Below are positions 40,130 to 48,191 of a stretch of 64,000 nt of DNA, one piece after another. The notes beneath the pieces were generated by a model that saw only the letters and a program-made list of their open reading frames with translations, made no database searches and was not told where the DNA came from. How positions within the stretch are numbered: the stretch's first letter is position 1; each line of letters begins with the position of its first letter. The translations under genes were made by a program, and so were the position numbers. This stretch comes from Escherichia phage dhabil. The stretch lies in sequence record MN850621.1. The stretch is one strand, 5' to 3'.

Positions 40130-41413
40130 ATGGCAAAGATTAACGAATTACTGCGCGAGTCAACAACTACTACCAGCAACTCATTGGGTCGCCCTAATCT
40201 TGTTGCTTTGACCCGTGCTACCACTAAACTAATTTATCGCGATATCATCGCTGAACAACGTACAAACCAACCTATCGCTGCGTTGTATGGTGTCAAATAT
40301 CTTACCCCTGATAATGAATTCAGTTTCCAAACCGGTGCAGTTTATGGTGGTGAAGTTGGTTCTAAAGACCGTGAAACTATCCCGGAACTCACAGATAAAG
40401 CCCAGGCGATTGCCAAGGGTGACTACTTTAAGTATCAGAATGTGGTTTATAAGGCTCTTCAAGCAAGCCCACTCGCATCCACTAGCGCTACAGAATTGGC
40501 CGATGCTCTTCAAGAAGGTTTGGTGTCATTAACGTGTCGTTTGGTTCCTGATGCAGCCCATACCACTAAATTTGAAGAGAGTGATGTAGAAATCTCTGAT
40601 GCTGTATTCCAGGTTAATAAATGGAATGCCCCTGTTAAGACCCGTAAATTGAAGACTGCTTTGACCGTAGAATTAGCACAGGATATGGAATCAAATGGCT
40701 TCGACGCCCCTGCATTCTTAGAAGACCTCCTGGCTACAGTAATGGCAGATGAAATTAATAAAGATGTTCTGCAATCCCTAATAACCGTATCCAAACGCTA
40801 TAAAGTTACGGGTGTATCTGATAATGGCATCATCGATTTGACTTATGATAGTGCTCCAGAATCTGCACGTAAACTTTATGAAATTGTTTGTGAGATGAAT
40901 TCTGAAATCCAGAAAACTACTTCTTATTCGGGTACGTTTGTTGTGGCTTCAAGTCGTGTGGCTGCAATGCTTGCAGGTTCTGGCTGGTTAAAACATAGAC
41001 CTGAAGATAATAATTGGCTCCCAGAAACGGCCTATGGTTATTTGTTGAATGGATTACCTCTGTTCTGTGACGTTAACAGCCCATTGGATTATGTTATCGT
41101 AGGTGTTAAAGAGAACTATGGTGGTAATGAAGTTGTCGGTTCTATTTTCTATGCCCCATATACAGAAGGCCTGGATTTAGACGACCAAGAACACGTTGGT
41201 GCTTATAAGGTTATTGTCGACCCGGATTCATTACAGCCTTCTATTTCTCTGATGGTTCGTTATGCACTGTCCGCTAACCCGTACACCGTAGCTAAAGACG
41301 ATAAAGAAGCTCGTGTTATCGATGCAACCAATATGGATTTAATGGCTGGTCAGAGTAATATGTCTTATCTGCTTGGTGTTAAACTTCCAGCAATTATTTA
41401 CGAGGCTGATTAA
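40130..41413 (+). CDS. 24: capsid vertex protein gp24, copy 1
   Basis: 427 aa (T4 gp24 length); gp23-like blocks (FRIDKW..EVK.RKLKT.LTVELAQD, YAPYTEGLD, LSANPYTVAKDDKEARVID). Confidence 0.85.
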   Translation: MAKINELLRESTTTTSNSLGRPNLVALTRATTKLIYRDIIAEQRTNQPIAALYGVKYLTPDNEFSFQTGAVYGGEVGSKDRETIPELTDKAQAIAKGDYFKYQNVVYKALQASPLASTSATELADALQEGLVSLTCRLVPDAAHTTKFEESDVEISDAVFQVNKWNAPVKTRKLKTALTVELAQDMESNGFDAPAFLEDLLATVMADEINKDVLQSLITVSKRYKVTGVSDNGIIDLTYDSAPESARKLYEIVCEMNSEIQKTTSYSGTFVVASSRVAAMLAGSGWLKHRPEDNNWLPETAYGYLLNGLPLFCDVNSPLDYVIVGVKENYGGNEVVGSIFYAPYTEGLDLDDQEHVGAYKVIVDPDSLQPSISLMVRYALSANPYTVAKDDKEARVIDATNMDLMAGQSNMSYLLGVKLPAIIYEAD

Positions 41414-42693
41414 TGTCTAAGATTATAGACCTAATTAAAGAATCCACATTGACGGCTGCCAACTCGGTTGGCCGTCCTGCTCTTCTTTCATACACCCAAG
41501 CAACTAATAAACGAATCTTTAAAGCCCTAGTTGCTGAACAAAAAACAAGCCAACCTGTTGCTGCTCTGTACGGGGTTCGTGTACTTAACCCTGACGACAA
41601 AATGACTTATCTTGGTGGCGCTACATTTGCAGGCCAGATTGGTATGTCGGAACGTGAAAATATTCCTGAATTTACCGATTCGTCTACAGCTTATGCAGCC
41701 GGCGATATGTTCCAGTTTGAAAGTGTAGTGTTTAAAGTTCTAGAAGCATCTCCTTTCGCCGGAACCACGGAAACCGACCTCGGTGAAGTTATTTCTGAAG
41801 CAGTGGCCGCTGGGCATATTCGTATGGTATCAGATGCTGCTATTACTTCTAAATTCGAACAAGGCCATCCTGAAATTGCTGAAGCAGGCTTCCGTATTGA
41901 CAAATGGCAATCTGAAGTTAAATCACGTAAACTGAAAACTTCATTGACAGTCGAATTGGCCCAAGACCTAGAATCAAACGGGTTTAATGCTCCTAATTTC
42001 ATTGAAAATCTGCTAGGCATTCAAATGGCAGAAGAAATTAATAAGGACGTATTACAGTCATTAATTACAGTGAGTTCTCGTTTTAAAGTCCAGGGTGTTT
42101 CTGAAAAGGGCGTATTGGACCTTACTAACCCACGTTATGATAATGCCCAGGACCGTGCTCGTACATTATATTATTACATGTGTGAGATGAACTCTGCCGT
42201 CCAACGTCAAACTTCTTTCGCTGGGACTTATGCCGTAGCTAGTTCTCGTTGTGCTGCTATTCTCGCTGCATCCGGTTGGGTTGAGAAAAAGGAAGACCAA
42301 GATGAATTGGCTTATGGTGTATTAAAGAATGGTCTACCTCTTTATGCCGATATGAATAGTCCATGTGATTATGTTATTGTTGGTGTAAATGCTCAGATGG
42401 GTGAAGGACAGACGGTCGCATCTTTATATTATGCGCCTTATACGGAAGGTTTGGATGTGGTTGATGAAGAAGGTGATACTTCAGTAGGTGAATTTAAGGT
42501 TATTGTTGACCCAGAAAGCTTACAACCTACAGTAGCATTGCTTGCTCGTTATGCATTGACTGCAAACCCTTATACCGTCGCTAAGGACGATAAAGAAGCC
42601 CGCATTATTGATGGTTCTGATATGGACAAAATGGCTAACCAAAGCCAGTTGAGTTCTTATCTCGGTGTTAAACTTCCACCACTAGAAAAATAA
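41413..42693 (+). CDS. 24: capsid vertex protein gp24, copy 2 (tandem paralog)
   Basis: 426 aa, alignable with copy 1 over full length; translationally coupled (TAATG). Confidence 0.85.
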   Translation: MSKIIDLIKESTLTAANSVGRPALLSYTQATNKRIFKALVAEQKTSQPVAALYGVRVLNPDDKMTYLGGATFAGQIGMSERENIPEFTDSSTAYAAGDMFQFESVVFKVLEASPFAGTTETDLGEVISEAVAAGHIRMVSDAAITSKFEQGHPEIAEAGFRIDKWQSEVKSRKLKTSLTVELAQDLESNGFNAPNFIENLLGIQMAEEINKDVLQSLITVSSRFKVQGVSEKGVLDLTNPRYDNAQDRARTLYYYMCEMNSAVQRQTSFAGTYAVASSRCAAILAASGWVEKKEDQDELAYGVLKNGLPLYADMNSPCDYVIVGVNAQMGEGQTVASLYYAPYTEGLDVVDEEGDTSVGEFKVIVDPESLQPTVALLARYALTANPYTVAKDDKEARIIDGSDMDKMANQSQLSSYLGVKLPPLEK

Positions 42694-42718
42694 AAGGGAC
42701 CGTAAGGTCCCTTTATTG
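42693..42718 (+). terminator. intrinsic terminator GGGACC-GTAA-GGTCCC + TTTATTGTTTATT
   Basis: Hairpin plus T-rich tract directly after gp24 copy 2. Confidence 0.6.
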
Positions 42719-43727: not shown

Positions 43728-43841
43728 AAATCACCATAATAAATATAATTAAATAGAAGAGCTAGTAATCTTCTGTCACCAAGCCAAATGGTTTAACGGA
43801 AGGACCTAGACCCATTATAACACACCTAAATTTAAAGCATA

Positions 43842-44054
43842 TTACTTTAGACCAAAAACGCGCTTTGCGCTGACCTTTTTGTTGTTTAATCTTTTACGAT
43901 ACACAACTTTCTCTTTTGCTTTAAACTTGGCCTTAGCATTCTCAACTTCGGCCCAGGCTTTAGCCATATCTCTGGCAGTTCCGCCAATCTTTTTAGCAAT
44001 ATCAATAAAATTCATACCCGATTCATGTAAAAAATGTACTTTAATCTTATCCAT
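43842..44054 (-). CDS. small helix-turn-helix-like protein (about 70 aa from MDKIKV)
   Basis: Start at 44052-44054 is downstream of the predicted promoter; GMNFIDIAKKIGGTARDMAKAW resembles an HTH. Confidence 0.45.
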   Translation of the reverse strand: MDKIKVHFLHESGMNFIDIAKKIGGTARDMAKAWAEVENAKAKFKAKEKVVYRKRLNNKKVSAKRVFGLK

Positions 44055-44083
44055 AACAGTTCTCTTGTGATTTGAACTATTCA

Positions 44084-44113
44084 ATAGTAACATGAGAATT
44101 TTAACTTGTAAAC
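44084..44113 (-). promoter_or_regulatory. early promoter (GTTTAC-N18-TACTAT, minus sense)
   Basis: Same architecture as the early promoters at 3748, 5902 and 6253. Confidence 0.45.
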
Positions 44114-44123
44114 AGGAGATTTT

Positions 44124-45629
44124 ATGTCAGACAATCCATTATACGGGCATGATGGTAGAGGCCACTTTAGAGGCGTATCATTAGTAGAAGTTCCACAGAA
44201 CAAATCATTGGAATTTGTGGACATACTCACTAGTGAAAGCACCTTAGACCCTACTATGCTAGATTCTTCTCAAAGCTATGGACTTGAATTTATAAAACAA
44301 GCTTCTAGGGAAGGCGCGTTGGCCCATTTAGGTATAACTAATGAGATGCTAACACCTGGTACTGAAGGTCCACAAGGCCCTAAAGGAGACCCAGGGCCGC
44401 AAGGTATTCAAGGTAACCCCGGTCCTAAAGGAGAAAAGGGCGAACCAGGACCAGTAGGTCCAGAAGGTCCTAAAGGAGACCCGGGTTCACCAGGAAAAGA
44501 AGGCCCTCAGGGTTTACAAGGGGCCCAAGGAGAAGTAGGACCGCAAGGACCACAAGGTCCTATAGGCCCGGCAGGTTTGGTGTGGAAGGGAGCCTGGGAT
44601 GAATCTACCCAATACTCTAAAGACGATGCAGTTGGATACCAGGGAGCTTCTTATTTTTGCATCAGTTCTAATACAGGAACAATACCTCCTAGCGAAGGAG
44701 TTTGGGCACTATTGGCTAATATCGGTGCACCAGGTCCTCAAGGACCAACAGGCCCAACCGGCCCTCAAGGTCCACAAGGCGCGCCAGGCCAAGATGGTAA
44801 TGGGTTTATCTGGGCCGGAAACTGGGCCCTTGGTTCGTCTTATTATATAAACGATTTGGTCCAGTGCGAAGGGTCTTCTTGGATTTGTATCCAGGATAAT
44901 ATAGCAAATAATGATAGTTATCCTGGGAGTGGAGACCTGTGGGCCGATTATTGGAATTTATTTGTAAAAGAAGGGCGTCCAGGAAATCCCGGAGAAGATG
45001 GTGCACCTGGAGAGCAAGGTGCCCAAGGACCGCAAGGCGACCCAGGTCCTAAAGGTGAAAAGGGTGAACCCGGGCCACAAGGTATTCAAGGTCCTATAGG
45101 TCCTGCAGGTGCGCCAGGCAAAGATGCAGTATTTGATGTCGATTCTTTAACCCAGTCTCAATTAAAATCTTTATATGATAAACTTTTCCCATTCTATCCA
45201 CCTAGATATTGGAAAGGCTCTTTAAGATTTGATAAGCCTCTGAACACTTCAGAGTGGAAGGAAATACGTTTGTGGGACCTTAATATGGTTCTTCATGTTC
45301 GCATGTACTCATCTGTAGGCATCCATATAAGGGCTACTAATGCAGGTCTTACTAATAGGCTTGATATTAAAAGATTTACCAACTATGAAAACGGAATAGA
45401 ATGTGCCAACTGGAGTAATGTGTTGTGGTCATCATCTCCTGAATTATTCGACGATTTGGCTTATTCTAGTGCAAGACAATTTAACCGTTACGAAATATTT
45501 GACCGTGATACTAGAAAATACTACACTGTATCTGTGTTTATTGTAGGCGGCCCTCTTAATACGACTACAGATATCCCTGTTGAAGTTTTATTTTCTGTCG
45601 AAGACCATACCAATATGAGCACGTTTTAA
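44124..45629 (+). CDS. collagen-like triple-helix repeat protein with two carbohydrate-binding-like (CBM5/12-type) inserts and a C-terminal globular domain (501 aa)
   Basis: Three Gly-X-Y runs (aa about 81-152, 203-229, 286-336) separated by two W....Y..(D)D.V.Y.G.SY.C...N.G..P....W motifs; RBS AGGAGA. Confidence 0.75.
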
Positions 45630-45638
45630 GGAGGTTAA

Positions 45639-46505
45639 ATGATTGTACTTAAAATAAATGGTCCTAGATATGAATTGGTTGGCAGGACAGTAACCTTTTA
45701 TACCGGGTTTGTATTACCACCCGGTTCTACTCTAGATGACGTAGAAATTAATTGGTATAAAAACGATGTCCATATTCCACAACTTCCTACCGAAGACCCT
45801 TTTGAATTAAATTTATGGGAAGTAGGATTCCCGGCGGCAGGAACATTTTATGCGACCATAACAAATAAGAAAAGTGGTGAAATAACAAAGAGTAACGAAA
45901 TAGAACTTGAAATAGGTACCCTTCCAAGAAGAATAGTCCTAGATATAAACTCTAGGGAATTAATATATGCCAATATAGGAGAAACAGTTTCACTTCGCCC
46001 GTCGTGTAGAGTGGAACCCACTTATGCCGAAAGAATTTGTAGATGGTATAGAGATGGAGTAGAATTATCTAAAGACGAAGATATTGATATATTAATAGAC
46101 GACCCTGATAAATTTGGAGATTATACATTAAAATCTATAGCGACCTGCGAAGGAGCATATATCCCTGCTTCTGAAGAACTTTTAGTTGAAATAAAACCTA
46201 GGGATGATGTATTGCAGTGCCCTTTCATATATGATAACGACCTTAATGCTTATTTACCATATGGCGGTGGAAGAAATGAATCGTATATGTGGATAGGTTG
46301 GTGGGTATGGGACGAAATAAGAGAAGCCGTTAGATTGGGAGAAGATTGGACTTTGGATATAAACAACAGCCCATACAAGTATAAATGTGAGTTACAAAAA
46401 GTAGCCGACCTTTTGTCTAAGTATCCTGAAGTAGAGATACAAGAGTCGAGAAATGGCTACATCTTAGAAAGGAAAGACTTAGTTTACGTCCCTCCTGAAA
46501 AATAA
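45639..46505 (+). CDS. Hoc-like capsid decoration protein paralog (288 aa)
   Basis: C-terminal about 90 aa (YMWIGWWVWDEI...EDW...LQKVADL...YPEVEIQESRNG) parallels the Hoc C-terminus at 46779-47066; RBS AGGAGG. Confidence 0.7.
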   Translation: MIVLKINGPRYELVGRTVTFYTGFVLPPGSTLDDVEINWYKNDVHIPQLPTEDPFELNLWEVGFPAAGTFYATITNKKSGEITKSNEIELEIGTLPRRIVLDINSRELIYANIGETVSLRPSCRVEPTYAERICRWYRDGVELSKDEDIDILIDDPDKFGDYTLKSIATCEGAYIPASEELLVEIKPRDDVLQCPFIYDNDLNAYLPYGGGRNESYMWIGWWVWDEIREAVRLGEDWTLDINNSPYKYKCELQKVADLLSKYPEVEIQESRNGYILERKDLVYVPPEK

Positions 46506-46507
46506 TA

Positions 46508-46529
46508 AAGGGCCTACGGGCCCTTTTTG
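46508..46529 (+). terminator. intrinsic terminator GGGCC-TAC-GGGCCC + T5
   Basis: AAAGGGCCTACGGGCCCTTTTTGG directly after the Hoc-like gene. Confidence 0.6.
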
Positions 46530-46693
46530 GTATGTAAAATTTTATCTATAGTAGCTATTATCCCAAAAAAGGAACTAATGCATGTGAAAAGAGCCAATAT
46601 AGAAGCAAACAACCCACTAGTTAATGAAATTAACGAAAACAAAAACAGCACTATAAAGAAAACCAACAACCCTATATCTTTGTTAAATTTCAT
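46514..46693 (-). CDS. small hydrophobic membrane protein (59 aa)
   Basis: Hand-translated: MKFNKDIGLLVFFIVLFLFSLISLTSGLFASILALFTCISSFFGIIATIDKILHTKKGP; RBS AGGTGG 4 nt before ATG. Confidence 0.4.
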   Translation of the reverse strand: MKFNKDIGLLVFFIVLFLFSLISLTSGLFASILALFTCISSFFGIIATIDKILHTKKGP

Positions 46694-46754: not shown

Positions 46755-46780
46755 AAATAAGGGCCTTGCGGCCCTTTATT
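46755..46780 (-). terminator. hairpin GGGCC-TTGC-GGCCC flanked by T-rich tracts (possibly bidirectional)
   Basis: AAATAAGGGCCTTGCGGCCCTTTATT directly 3' of hoc. Confidence 0.45.
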
Positions 46781-48191
46781 AATAAACGTAATCGTAAATA
46801 ATTCCAGCATCCAAAGCGGTTCTGTGAATAATTCTACCATTACGAGATTCCTGTACATCAACCTCAGGATAATCGGCTACCATTTTTTGAAGGGTATAAC
46901 GATGGAGATAATATTCACTATCAGGTTCGTCAGTTTTCCAGTCTTTGCCTTCAAGGGTCATTTTCTGAATTTCGTCCATAACCCACCAACCACACCAAAT
47001 ATAAGCTGAATTACGAACTGGTAGCGGATGAACGTAAGGTAGTTCGCCCTCTGGTTCAGGAGCGACTTTAGCCGTAATTGTTACATTACCGGATTTTGTG
47101 ACGGTCACAGAATTATAGTCGGTAGCCGAAACCACAACAGAAACTTCAATAACCTGTGAACCTTCAGCGCTTGTGTCAATTACTAATGTATCCGTAGCAC
47201 CCACAACAGGTGAACCATCTTTCTTCCAAGAATAAGCAAAAGTAGCACCACTAGGCGCACCGACTACCGTGGCTTTAAAAGAAGCCGGGATTCCTTCAGA
47301 GACAGTAATAGAAGCAGGCGTTAAATTAACAGAAACACCTGCCATAGTCTTTTTAGTAATTGTTACACTTCCTGTTTTGGTAACGGTTAAATCATTATAA
47401 TCCGTACCTTTTAGGAGTACCGAAACTTCAATAGAGTAAGAACCTATTGTAGACGTATCAACAGCAAGAGTATTACTGCTTTCGCCCGGAATAATAGAAC
47501 CGTTTTTCTTCCAAGAATAAGTTGCATTTACGCCGGAAGGAGCGCCGACTACATCCGCTTTAAACTGTGCAGATGAGTCTTTCTCTGTACTAATTGAGGC
47601 CGGTGTTAAAGTAACAGAAACACCTGATATAGTTTTCTTAACAAAAGTTACCGCAGCACCTTTAGTAGCGGTACCCGGGTTATATTCAGGGGCGGTAACA
47701 GTAACTTCACAGTTCAACGTGTAATTTGCTTCCGCGGCTTCGGTTACAGTAATAGTTTTACCAGTTTGGCCAGAGATTACGCTGGTGTTACGTTTCCAAA
47801 CATAAGCAATTGTTGCACCTGCAGGTGCACCCGTCACGTTAGCAGTAACAACTTGAGATTGGCCAACTTCTTTAGAAACAGAAATAGGGTCCAAAGCCAA
47901 AGAAATAGACATGGTCTTATTAGCTACGGTAACTTCAAAAGTATCTTCAGCTACCTCAGGTTCGCCTTCAGCCGGAGTAGAAGTTGCTACTACTTTTAAA
48001 ACTTTCTTACCTACAGGTGCAGCACCTGTATATTTCAAAACATTGGTTGCTTCTGGATTAGAAGCACCATCAATAGACCATACATATGTAATGGTTCCTT
48101 CTACAGCTGCACCTGTTGCGGTAGCAGTGTAGTTAGCACTTTCGCCTATTTTAATAGACGCTGTGCCGGCTATACTTACAGTAAAAGCCAT
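46779..48191 (-). CDS. hoc: Hoc outer capsid protein with four Ig-like repeats plus C-terminal capsid-binding domain (470 aa)
   Basis: Four about 95-aa Ig-like repeats each containing Y-x-W-K/S-x-(D/N)G; position next to inh as in T4. Confidence 0.85.
   Translation of the reverse strand: MAFTVSIAGTASIKIGESANYTATATGAAVEGTITYVWSIDGASNPEATNVLKYTGAAPVGKKVLKVVATSTPAEGEPEVAEDTFEVTVANKTMSISLALDPISVSKEVGQSQVVTANVTGAPAGATIAYVWKRNTSVISGQTGKTITVTEAAEANYTLNCEVTVTAPEYNPGTATKGAAVTFVKKTISGVSVTLTPASISTEKDSSAQFKADVVGAPSGVNATYSWKKNGSIIPGESSNTLAVDTSTIGSYSIEVSVLLKGTDYNDLTVTKTGSVTITKKTMAGVSVNLTPASITVSEGIPASFKATVVGAPSGATFAYSWKKDGSPVVGATDTLVIDTSAEGSQVIEVSVVVSATDYNSVTVTKSGNVTITAKVAPEPEGELPYVHPLPVRNSAYIWCGWWVMDEIQKMTLEGKDWKTDEPDSEYYLHRYTLQKMVADYPEVDVQESRNGRIIHRTALDAGIIYDYVY
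47067..47621 (-). repeat. internal tandem duplication of Ig-like domains 3 and 4 within hoc
   Basis: ATYSWKKNGSIIPGESSNTLAVDTSTIGSYSIEVSV... versus FAYSWKKDGSPVVGATDTLVIDTSAEGSQVIEVSV... are closely similar. Confidence 0.6.

Follow-up and report, generated by a model that had tools for sequence, protein, structure and literature searches.

The 64,000-nucleotide stretch of Escherichia phage dhabil DNA analysed here (record MN850621.1; hereafter the window) carries a gene for a 501-residue collagen-like fibre, followed immediately by a second, smaller gene for a Hoc-like protein, here termed hoc-2. The two genes are adjacent in every examined genome in which the fibre gene is intact, and from this and other genomic evidence we infer, with about an even chance of being right, that the product is a trimeric fibre shown on the capsid through Hoc-2. 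Held more tentatively is the specific arrangement that we favour, a two-component form of capsid display in which a monomeric adaptor, Hoc-2, sits in the centres of the gp23 hexamers and carries a separately encoded, exchangeable trimeric collagen fibre.

The evidence that carries this reading is, above all, one of linkage. Homologues were gathered with the full-length query, by exhaustive HMMER search and by tblastn of 50,697 phage records; word-indexed homologue searches with the isolated N-terminal or C-terminal domain gave no matches, and a scan of IMG/VR with the N-terminal profile recovered three loci only, tblastn on the phage collection having yielded more. For all 13 intact fibre genes found in isolate and metagenomic genomes (from Dhakavirus, Gelderlandvirus, Gaprivervirus, Roskildevirus, Pantoea and Aeromonas phages, including Emmerichvirinae, and two metagenomic contigs), the next gene encodes a Hoc C-terminal domain (phmmer E values of 1e-13 to 1e-20) and lies within -11 to +11 nucleotides (nt), with start and stop codons overlapping in several pairs. 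Four further pairs in metagenomic contigs bring the count to 17 of 17 intact fibre genes that abut a hoc-2 gene, in more than six genera and at several genomic positions. One of the four is the extra pair of a 119-kb contig (SRR10097265_5069; locus L007, 6001-10970) that contains two cassettes in tandem, with one Hoc-2 per fibre, in the order fibre (488 residues), Hoc-2 (278), fibre (586) and Hoc-2 (286); this arrangement offers a natural case in which to test whether cognate pairing is specific. On another contig (ERZ27235511 k119_70257; locus L022, 3404-5659), the order is reversed, such that hoc-2 comes first, and the gap is still 9 nt. The Hoc-2 of this locus is short, with 195 residues forming one immunoglobulin (Ig) domain plus the C-terminal domain, and its fibre has two inserts resembling carbohydrate-binding modules (CBMs) and a different head. 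The usual location of the fibre gene is the 23-24-rnlB-hoc-inh head region, and the pair is also kept by tk in Aeromonas phage 65, after gene 24b in Cronus and FBB1, and beside NAMPT in Pantoea phage Phynn; among the genomes examined, the fibre gene is never found among tail-fibre genes.

The distribution of the two genes is equally close. The N-terminal Ig domain of Hoc-2 is present in 22 of the 50,697 phage records, essentially the same genomes as those of the fibre carriers, and each of the 22 also carries the fibre N-terminal domain, as seen for IME08 by translation rather than by tblastn. Both genes are absent from JS98 and both are present in its close relative JS10. Pseudomonas phage PspYZU05 (L017, 3989-4653) retains a 49-residue N-terminal fragment of the fibre and a 132-residue C-terminal fragment of Hoc-2, the end of the first gene and the start of the second being gone, apparently through a single deletion, and Aeromonas phage AP1 (L014, 3995-4231) has a 78-residue fibre fragment and no hoc-2. 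Where both genes persist, their divergence is shared. Comparison of the window with JS10 gives 100% identity for gp24b, 49% for the fibre N-terminal domain and 56% for the Hoc-2 N-terminal domain; ABTNLsp5 and TH15, which belong to different genera, are 87 and 91% identical, respectively, in the latter two. Across 21 pairs, the identity of the fibre N-terminal domain correlates with that of the Hoc-2 N-terminal domain (r = 0.85) and is unrelated to that of gp24b (r = -0.03). The cassette is, on these comparisons, one that moves or is exchanged as a unit between phage backbones, near-identical ones among them.

The preliminary description of this region, made from the letters of the sequence, had placed the fibre gene between rnlB and hoc. 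The region was rightly identified, but the direct neighbours were not: a DUF2774 gene stands upstream, and the gene downstream is a second hoc-like gene and not the main hoc; the partner had been overlooked. Its recognition shifts the likely site of the fibre from an undecided "capsid or neck" to a specific model of capsid display. Hoc-2 matches the "Hoc-like head decoration" family PHROG 1149 (E = 6e-43) over residues 35-282, and phmmer aligns its C-terminal domain, the ESRNG motif included, with T4 Hoc residues 297-365 as solved on the capsid (PDB 5VF3 and others; E = 1.6e-14). The putative Ig-like domains N-terminal to it give a weak match to Pfam Ig_2 (E = 0.0068; 17.1 bits versus a cut-off of 27), and no similarity was detectable between the N-terminal Ig domain of Hoc-2 and the Ig domains of the main Hoc (Hoc-1); nor was this domain, or the N-terminal or head domain of the fibre, found to resemble anything else in the window. 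This distal Ig domain is nevertheless the better conserved of the two, with a mean pairwise identity of 38% versus 29% for the middle domain, and it is never lost, the middle domain being missing in Cronus and in the L022 protein. Such constraint is unusual, since the Ig domains of ordinary Hoc are described as variable (Fokine et al. 2023, PMC10385173). In the window, the fibre gene and, 9 nt downstream, hoc-2 share a reading frame, with only TAA GGA GGT TAA between them. Production of a single fibre-Hoc fusion by read-through was considered and rejected; two stop codons separate the genes here, and in other phages the overlap is out of frame, amounting to 4 nt in AS4, phage 65 and GomatiRiver_11.

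The fibre protein itself matches dhabil_240 of Escherichia phage dhabil (Dhakavirus) at 100% identity and dhaeg_81 at 99.8%; each of these is annotated as hypothetical. The architecture first proposed for it, comprising collagen, inserts and a head, holds good, but it omitted a conserved N-terminal domain of 78 residues. This domain is the sole region kept in every member of the family, whatever the stalk or head. Stalks range from none at all in Phynn, where there is no collagen and the protein has 239 residues, to one with three CBM nodes in ABTNLsp5 (609 residues), and the head is replaceable. A constant N-terminal domain combined with a variable stalk and head follows the usual pattern of an anchor succeeded by a variable receptor-binding end, and we take the domain to be the probable anchor. 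No match to the N-terminal 82 residues was found in Pfam at E values up to 10, and a profile search of the PDB with the domain gave no relative (best E = 0.21). The domain was also found in no Tequatrovirus (T4) record of the phage collection by tblastn, which agrees with the earlier remark that no such gene is known at the gene 24-hoc junction of T4. The gene of Phynn (L018, 3989-4708) joins the anchor straight to the neck and head and is followed by hoc-2, which is mis-annotated there as "capsid vertex protein".

The open reading frame (ORF) of 501 residues on the plus strand was borne out, as were its three perfect Gly-X-Y runs, which contain 51 uninterrupted triplets (25, 9 and 17). Pfam Collagen (PF01391) matches four stretches with 83.5 bits (cut-off 27.2; E = 8.8e-24). 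Proline occupies the X position in 22 of the 51 triplets and the Y position in 13, and at 0.286 nm per residue the triplets would correspond to a triple helix of ∼44 nm. The collagen parts are modelled by AlphaFold2 (AF2), as a monomer, with a predicted local distance difference test (pLDDT) score below 50, as expected. The inserts that interrupt the collagen are, in the same model, confidently predicted parts of the stalk (pLDDT 65-85). That there are two, with the sequences quoted previously, is correct, and their assignment to the CBM5/12 class stands at the level of family and fold, although not as a full-length profile match. The whole protein scores 37.8 bits against Pfam CBM_5_12 (PF02839; gathering cut-off 26.2), with the first insert alone only marginally over that cut-off, at 26.6 bits. 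In a Foldseek comparison, both inserts together (∼130 columns) match the tandem CBM12 of the Vibrio chitin oligosaccharide deacetylase 4NYU/4NY2 (probability 1.00, E = 1.5e-4). W155, Y164, Y172, Y177 and W195 are conserved aromatic residues. Binding of carbohydrate by the inserts is plausible on this evidence.

After the last collagen run, a cluster of invariant residues (L342, Q344, L347, L350, Y351, K353, L354 and F357) falls in a helix that is probably a trimerisation neck, which by analogy with the collectins would nucleate trimerisation. The globular C-terminal domain, predicted at about 165 residues, measures ∼167. Modelled alone with 17 sequences, it gives a confident structure (mean pLDDT 83; predicted template modelling score 0.73), in which a helix precedes a 10-strand β-sandwich. 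Structural similarity of this sandwich to the 10-strand jelly-roll of gC1q/TNF domains, a relationship that had been put forward for checking, was not found. The domain is rare: exhaustive HMMER searching of 1.84 billion representative proteins yielded 13 relatives, 12 of them fibre-family proteins and the remaining one a marginal match of 31 residues. All eight relatives that were retrieved belong to the fibre family, and seven of the eight have its N terminus. The fold recurs in the head of the JS10 fibre, which has no detectable sequence similarity to that of the window, and in a collagen-like protein of a siphophage.

As reported previously, no late promoter precedes the fibre gene: exact TATAAATA is absent from the plus strand between 40101 and 48892, and late-like sites with one mismatch occur only at least 124 nt upstream of the gene. 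These late-like sites (AATAAATA at 43738 and TATCAATA at 44000), together with a MotA-like box at 43915, were rejected as too far away, antisense to 24.3 or non-canonical in spacing. The short intergenic region before the fibre gene is filled by an apparent early-type promoter on the minus strand. Its sequence is also conserved ahead of the cassette in JS10, TH15, ABTNLsp5 and metagenomic relatives, among them the one in which hoc-2 comes first. The conserved ttaacttgtaaacagg is better read as the reverse complement of this 24.3/rnlB early promoter than as a promoter of the fibre gene. Exact TATAAATA late promoters do, however, precede the orthologues of TH15 (at -43), ABTNLsp5 (-42), Phynn (-75) and one metagenomic contig (-63), which argues that the fibre family is expressed late, with the structural genes.

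In the arrangement that these observations suggest, the fibre gene and hoc-2 would form a two-gene operon, and the former would encode one chain of a homotrimeric collagen-like fibre about 50 nm long. Each chain would run from the 78-residue anchor through ∼44 nm of triple helix in three segments to the helical neck and the β-sandwich tip, the assembled trimer bearing two nodes of three CBM5/12-like knobs each. The C-terminal domain of Hoc-2 would bind the centre of the gp23 hexamer, as that of T4 Hoc does, and the protein would thus act as a capsid adaptor that fills a fraction of the Hoc sites, for which the main Hoc-1 would compete. Its distal N-terminal Ig domain would grip the N-terminal domain of the fibre. 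The head would then bear long, flexible glycan-binding hairs with a reach far past that of ordinary Hoc, and these may provide weak, reversible adhesion to polysaccharide on host cells, in biofilm or in mucus, raising the rate of encounter with the host.

Several considerations weigh against this arrangement. Display of a trimeric fibre by a monomeric Hoc-2 poses an awkward stoichiometry, and the N-terminal domain on which the contact would depend is poorly modelled (pLDDT 30-39). Tight synteny can also come from shared regulation or co-transfer, without physical contact between the products. There is one exception to adjacency, IME08 (L021, 4514-5939), in which the fibre gene directly follows gene 24b, with rnlB and 24.3 standing between it and hoc-2; it is frameshifted past the N-terminal domain, the annotated coding sequence beginning downstream of the shift, which could be a sequencing error or mark a true pseudogene. 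No promoter for the operon was found in the window, and read-through from the late promoter of gene 24 is unlikely because a hairpin terminator (42693-42714) follows gene 24b. With respect to the ligand, the CBM_5_12 matches span only profile positions 1-28 or 1-31 of 44, leaving the C-terminal third unmatched, and, of the relatives, ABTNLsp5 alone passes the cut-off, JS10 and L022 being sub-threshold and six others giving no match at E values up to 0.01. Since the match is thus partial, and is sub-threshold or undetected in most of the family, glycan binding is no more than plausible. Finally, no proteomic or structural study of a cassette-bearing phage was found in the literature searched.

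The alternative that survives best, which we nonetheless consider unlikely, is that the product is an accessory tail or neck fibre, the N-terminal domain of which docks on the baseplate, collar or whisker region, with Hoc-2 an unrelated protein that happens to share the operon. Database names appear to say as much: PHROG 5073, a family labelled "tail fiber protein" with putative function, matches at E = 7.5e-86, and the family is otherwise known only as "tail fiber(-like) protein", the form used in many RefSeq records, or "hypothetical". Moreover, the alternation of collagen and CBM5/12 is common, many of the top matches carrying both Pfam domains and some also the T7-tail-fibre N terminus (PF03906), and Foldseek matches the inserts to the solved tail or baseplate fibres of Agrobacterium phages 7-7-1 and Milano. 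These names, however, derive from the collagen and CBM parts and not from the anchor, which matches no known tail-attachment domain in Pfam or the PDB. In the genomes examined, the gene is never amid tail-fibre genes and instead adjoins a Hoc paralogue despite relocation, reversal of order and duplication, and the two genes are lost or exchanged jointly. The "tail fiber protein" label carried by ∼20 phage genomes is probably wrong.

Only a little less probable is a fibre that belongs to the capsid and binds gp23 directly as a trimer, at hexamer centres or quasi-threefold sites, in the manner of SPP1 gp12, Hoc-2 being co-regulated and independent. A precedent is gp12 itself, a collagen-like trimer at hexamer centres, and the head-gene neighbourhood of the cassette and the late promoters of the orthologues suit this proposal. 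Nevertheless, it leaves unexplained why the fibre is constantly accompanied by a Hoc paralogue whose distal Ig domain is dedicated and conserved, and why the tandem duplication has one Hoc-2 per fibre, and two proteins placed at hexamer centres would compete for sites. Least likely is that the protein is no virion component at all, whether because it is set free at lysis as a collagen-like adhesin or decoy or because its gene is decaying and has little function here. The window indeed has no recognisable promoter, the cassette is dispensable (missing from JS98, surviving as remnants in AP1 and PspYZU05, and carrying a frameshift in IME08) and the nearest NCBIfam models are the bacterial collagen-like adhesins Scl and Lcl, but these lie far below their cut-offs (73 versus 325 bits), and the protein lacks both a signal peptide and an Scl/Lcl-type anchor motif. 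The ORF is also intact, with 96-100% conservation in dhabil, dhaeg, Ec2-ASingh and CLB_P2; each gene has a strong ribosome-binding site, a clean terminator ends the operon and the partner has a capsid-binding domain.

Positions of the cassette, its parts and the adjacent genes and signals are collected below.

Features of the fibre/hoc-2 cassette and its surroundings, numbered from the first nucleotide of the window
Feature	Position	Strand	Remarks
Bidirectional terminator hairpin	42693-42714		9-bp stem; between gene 24b (+) and rnlB (-)
DUF2774 (24.3-like) gene	43842-44093	-	Upstream neighbour of the fibre gene
Divergent early-type promoter	44084-44112	-	TTTACA-17-TACTAT with upstream TG; probably for the 24.3/rnlB operon
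Fibre Shine-Dalgarno	44114-44118	+	AGGAG, read from the sequence; ATG at 44124 starts 5 nt later
Collagen-like fibre gene	44124-45629	+	501 residues; identical to dhabil_240
N-terminal domain, proposed anchor	44124-44357	+	Residues 1-78; invariant G-H-D/N-G-R-G motif
Collagen run 1	44358-44582	+	Residues 79-153; 25 Gly-X-Y triplets
CBM5/12-like insert 1	44583-44723	+	Residues 154-200; CBM_5_12 26.6 bits, E = 6e-6 alone; pLDDT ∼65-73
Collagen run 2	44724-44804	+	Residues 201-227; 9 Gly-X-Y triplets
CBM5/12-like insert 2	44805-44972	+	Residues 228-283; CBM_5_12 23.2 bits, E = 7e-5 alone, below cut-off; pLDDT ∼69-85
Collagen run 3	44973-45125	+	Residues 284-334; 17 Gly-X-Y triplets
Neck helix and 10-strand β-sandwich head	45126-45626	+	Helix, residues 344-357; head, residues 362-496
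hoc-2 Shine-Dalgarno	45630-45634	+	GGAGG, within the 9-nt spacer after the fibre gene
hoc-2	45639-46505	+	288 residues; N-terminal Ig-like, middle Ig-like and capsid-binding C-terminal domain with ESRNG
Terminator hairpin closing the fibre/hoc-2 operon	46507-46526		AAAGGGCCTACGGGCCCTTT then T run; placed on the minus strand by the automated scan
Main hoc (Hoc-1)	46779-48191	-	470 residues; PHROG 1149 E = 2e-123; Pfam I-set/Ig_3 domains

Two further features of the neighbourhood were noted. Between hoc-2 and the main hoc is a very hydrophobic ORF of 59 residues (MKFNKDIGLLVFFIVLFLFSLISL...; 46514-46693, minus strand), flanked by the hairpin at 46507-46526 and another at 46759-46776; it is unannotated in phage dhaeg, and JS10 has no space for it. 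Upstream, two tandem paralogues of the head vertex protein gp24 are encoded at 40130-41413 and 41413-42693 (plus strand), the stop codon of the first overlapping the start of the second. JS98, JS10, CGG4-1, Cronus and IME08 share this duplication, the occurrence of which shows no correlation with that of the cassette; a link between the two was rejected, as JS98 has two gp24 genes and no cassette and AS4 and PspYZU05 have one gp24.

The components of the proposed system have parallels among known decorations and fibres. Phages with two Hoc-like proteins (Muldoon and PG7) have been noted, the ESRNG motif of the Hoc capsid-binding domain has been described and its reuse for the display of other ligands has been proposed (Fokine et al. 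2023, PMC10385173). Hoc-2 shares with T4 Hoc a C-terminal capsid-binding domain with ESRNG and the character of a non-essential accessory decoration, and it has putative Ig-like domains. It differs from T4 Hoc and from other second Hocs in that the proposed ligand is a separate collagen trimer encoded by a neighbouring gene and not a domain fused to Hoc. Its distal Ig domain, unlike the variable Ig domains of ordinary Hoc, is conserved and occurs only with the cassette. No study of the fibre/hoc-2 pair was found in the literature searched, nor any that links Hoc to a collagen-like gene.

Among the closest analogues of the fibre is gp12 of SPP1, a collagen-like trimeric decoration at the centres of capsid hexamers (Zairi et al. 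2014, cited in PMC7602432 and PMC5292684). The resemblance is one of function and architecture: both would be collagen-like trimers on an HK97-fold capsid that are dispensable and thought to aid adhesion to surfaces. As summarised there, gp12 is a small protein that attaches to the capsid without an intermediary, by means of a helical C-terminal part of its own, and is without CBM nodes or a globular tip; the fibre, unlike it, has 501 residues, a novel N-terminal domain and an adaptor gene alongside. The collagen-CBM5/12 phage fibres (PF01391 and PF02839, some with PF03906) show the same alternation of Gly-X-Y with ∼45-residue W..Y..DD.V.Y.G.SY modules, but they occur with T7-type tail-attachment N termini or in bacterial contexts, whereas in the present family both the GHDGRG N-terminal domain and the head are distinctive and a Hoc-2 neighbour is obligate. 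The collectins, C1q and Bacillus BclA follow the same overall plan, with a stalk of collagen leading through a short conserved helix, the neck, to a globular β head. Finally, gp8.5 of phi29 and the capsid fibres of phiCbK and 7-7-1 are likewise trimeric or filamentous capsid appendages, which help the phage in its first, reversible attachment and which it can do without in the laboratory; they differ in fold (that of phi29 is an α-helical supercoil) and attach directly at quasi-threefold positions, with no adaptor.

In phage display, Hoc is the standard platform; what it does in nature, whether adhesion to mucus or to cells, is still debated. If the reading of the cassette as a capsid-display system is correct, phages themselves exploit the Hoc site for modular docking, and the fibre/Hoc-2 pair offers a ready non-covalent module for capsid display. 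The probable mislabelling of the fibre as a tail protein matters for host-range prediction pipelines that rely on such names. JS10 and JS98, close relatives with and without the cassette, constitute a natural experiment, and the occurrence of the cassette in CLB_P2, a phage used in studies of gut colonisation and therapy, adds to its interest. The cassette would provide a direct handle on the role of capsid decoration in the gut or the environment. T4-like phages would, in that case, carry on their heads modular, horizontally swappable glycan-binding hairs about 50-60 nm long, which could set adherence to mucus, biofilm and the host capsule independently of the tail fibres.

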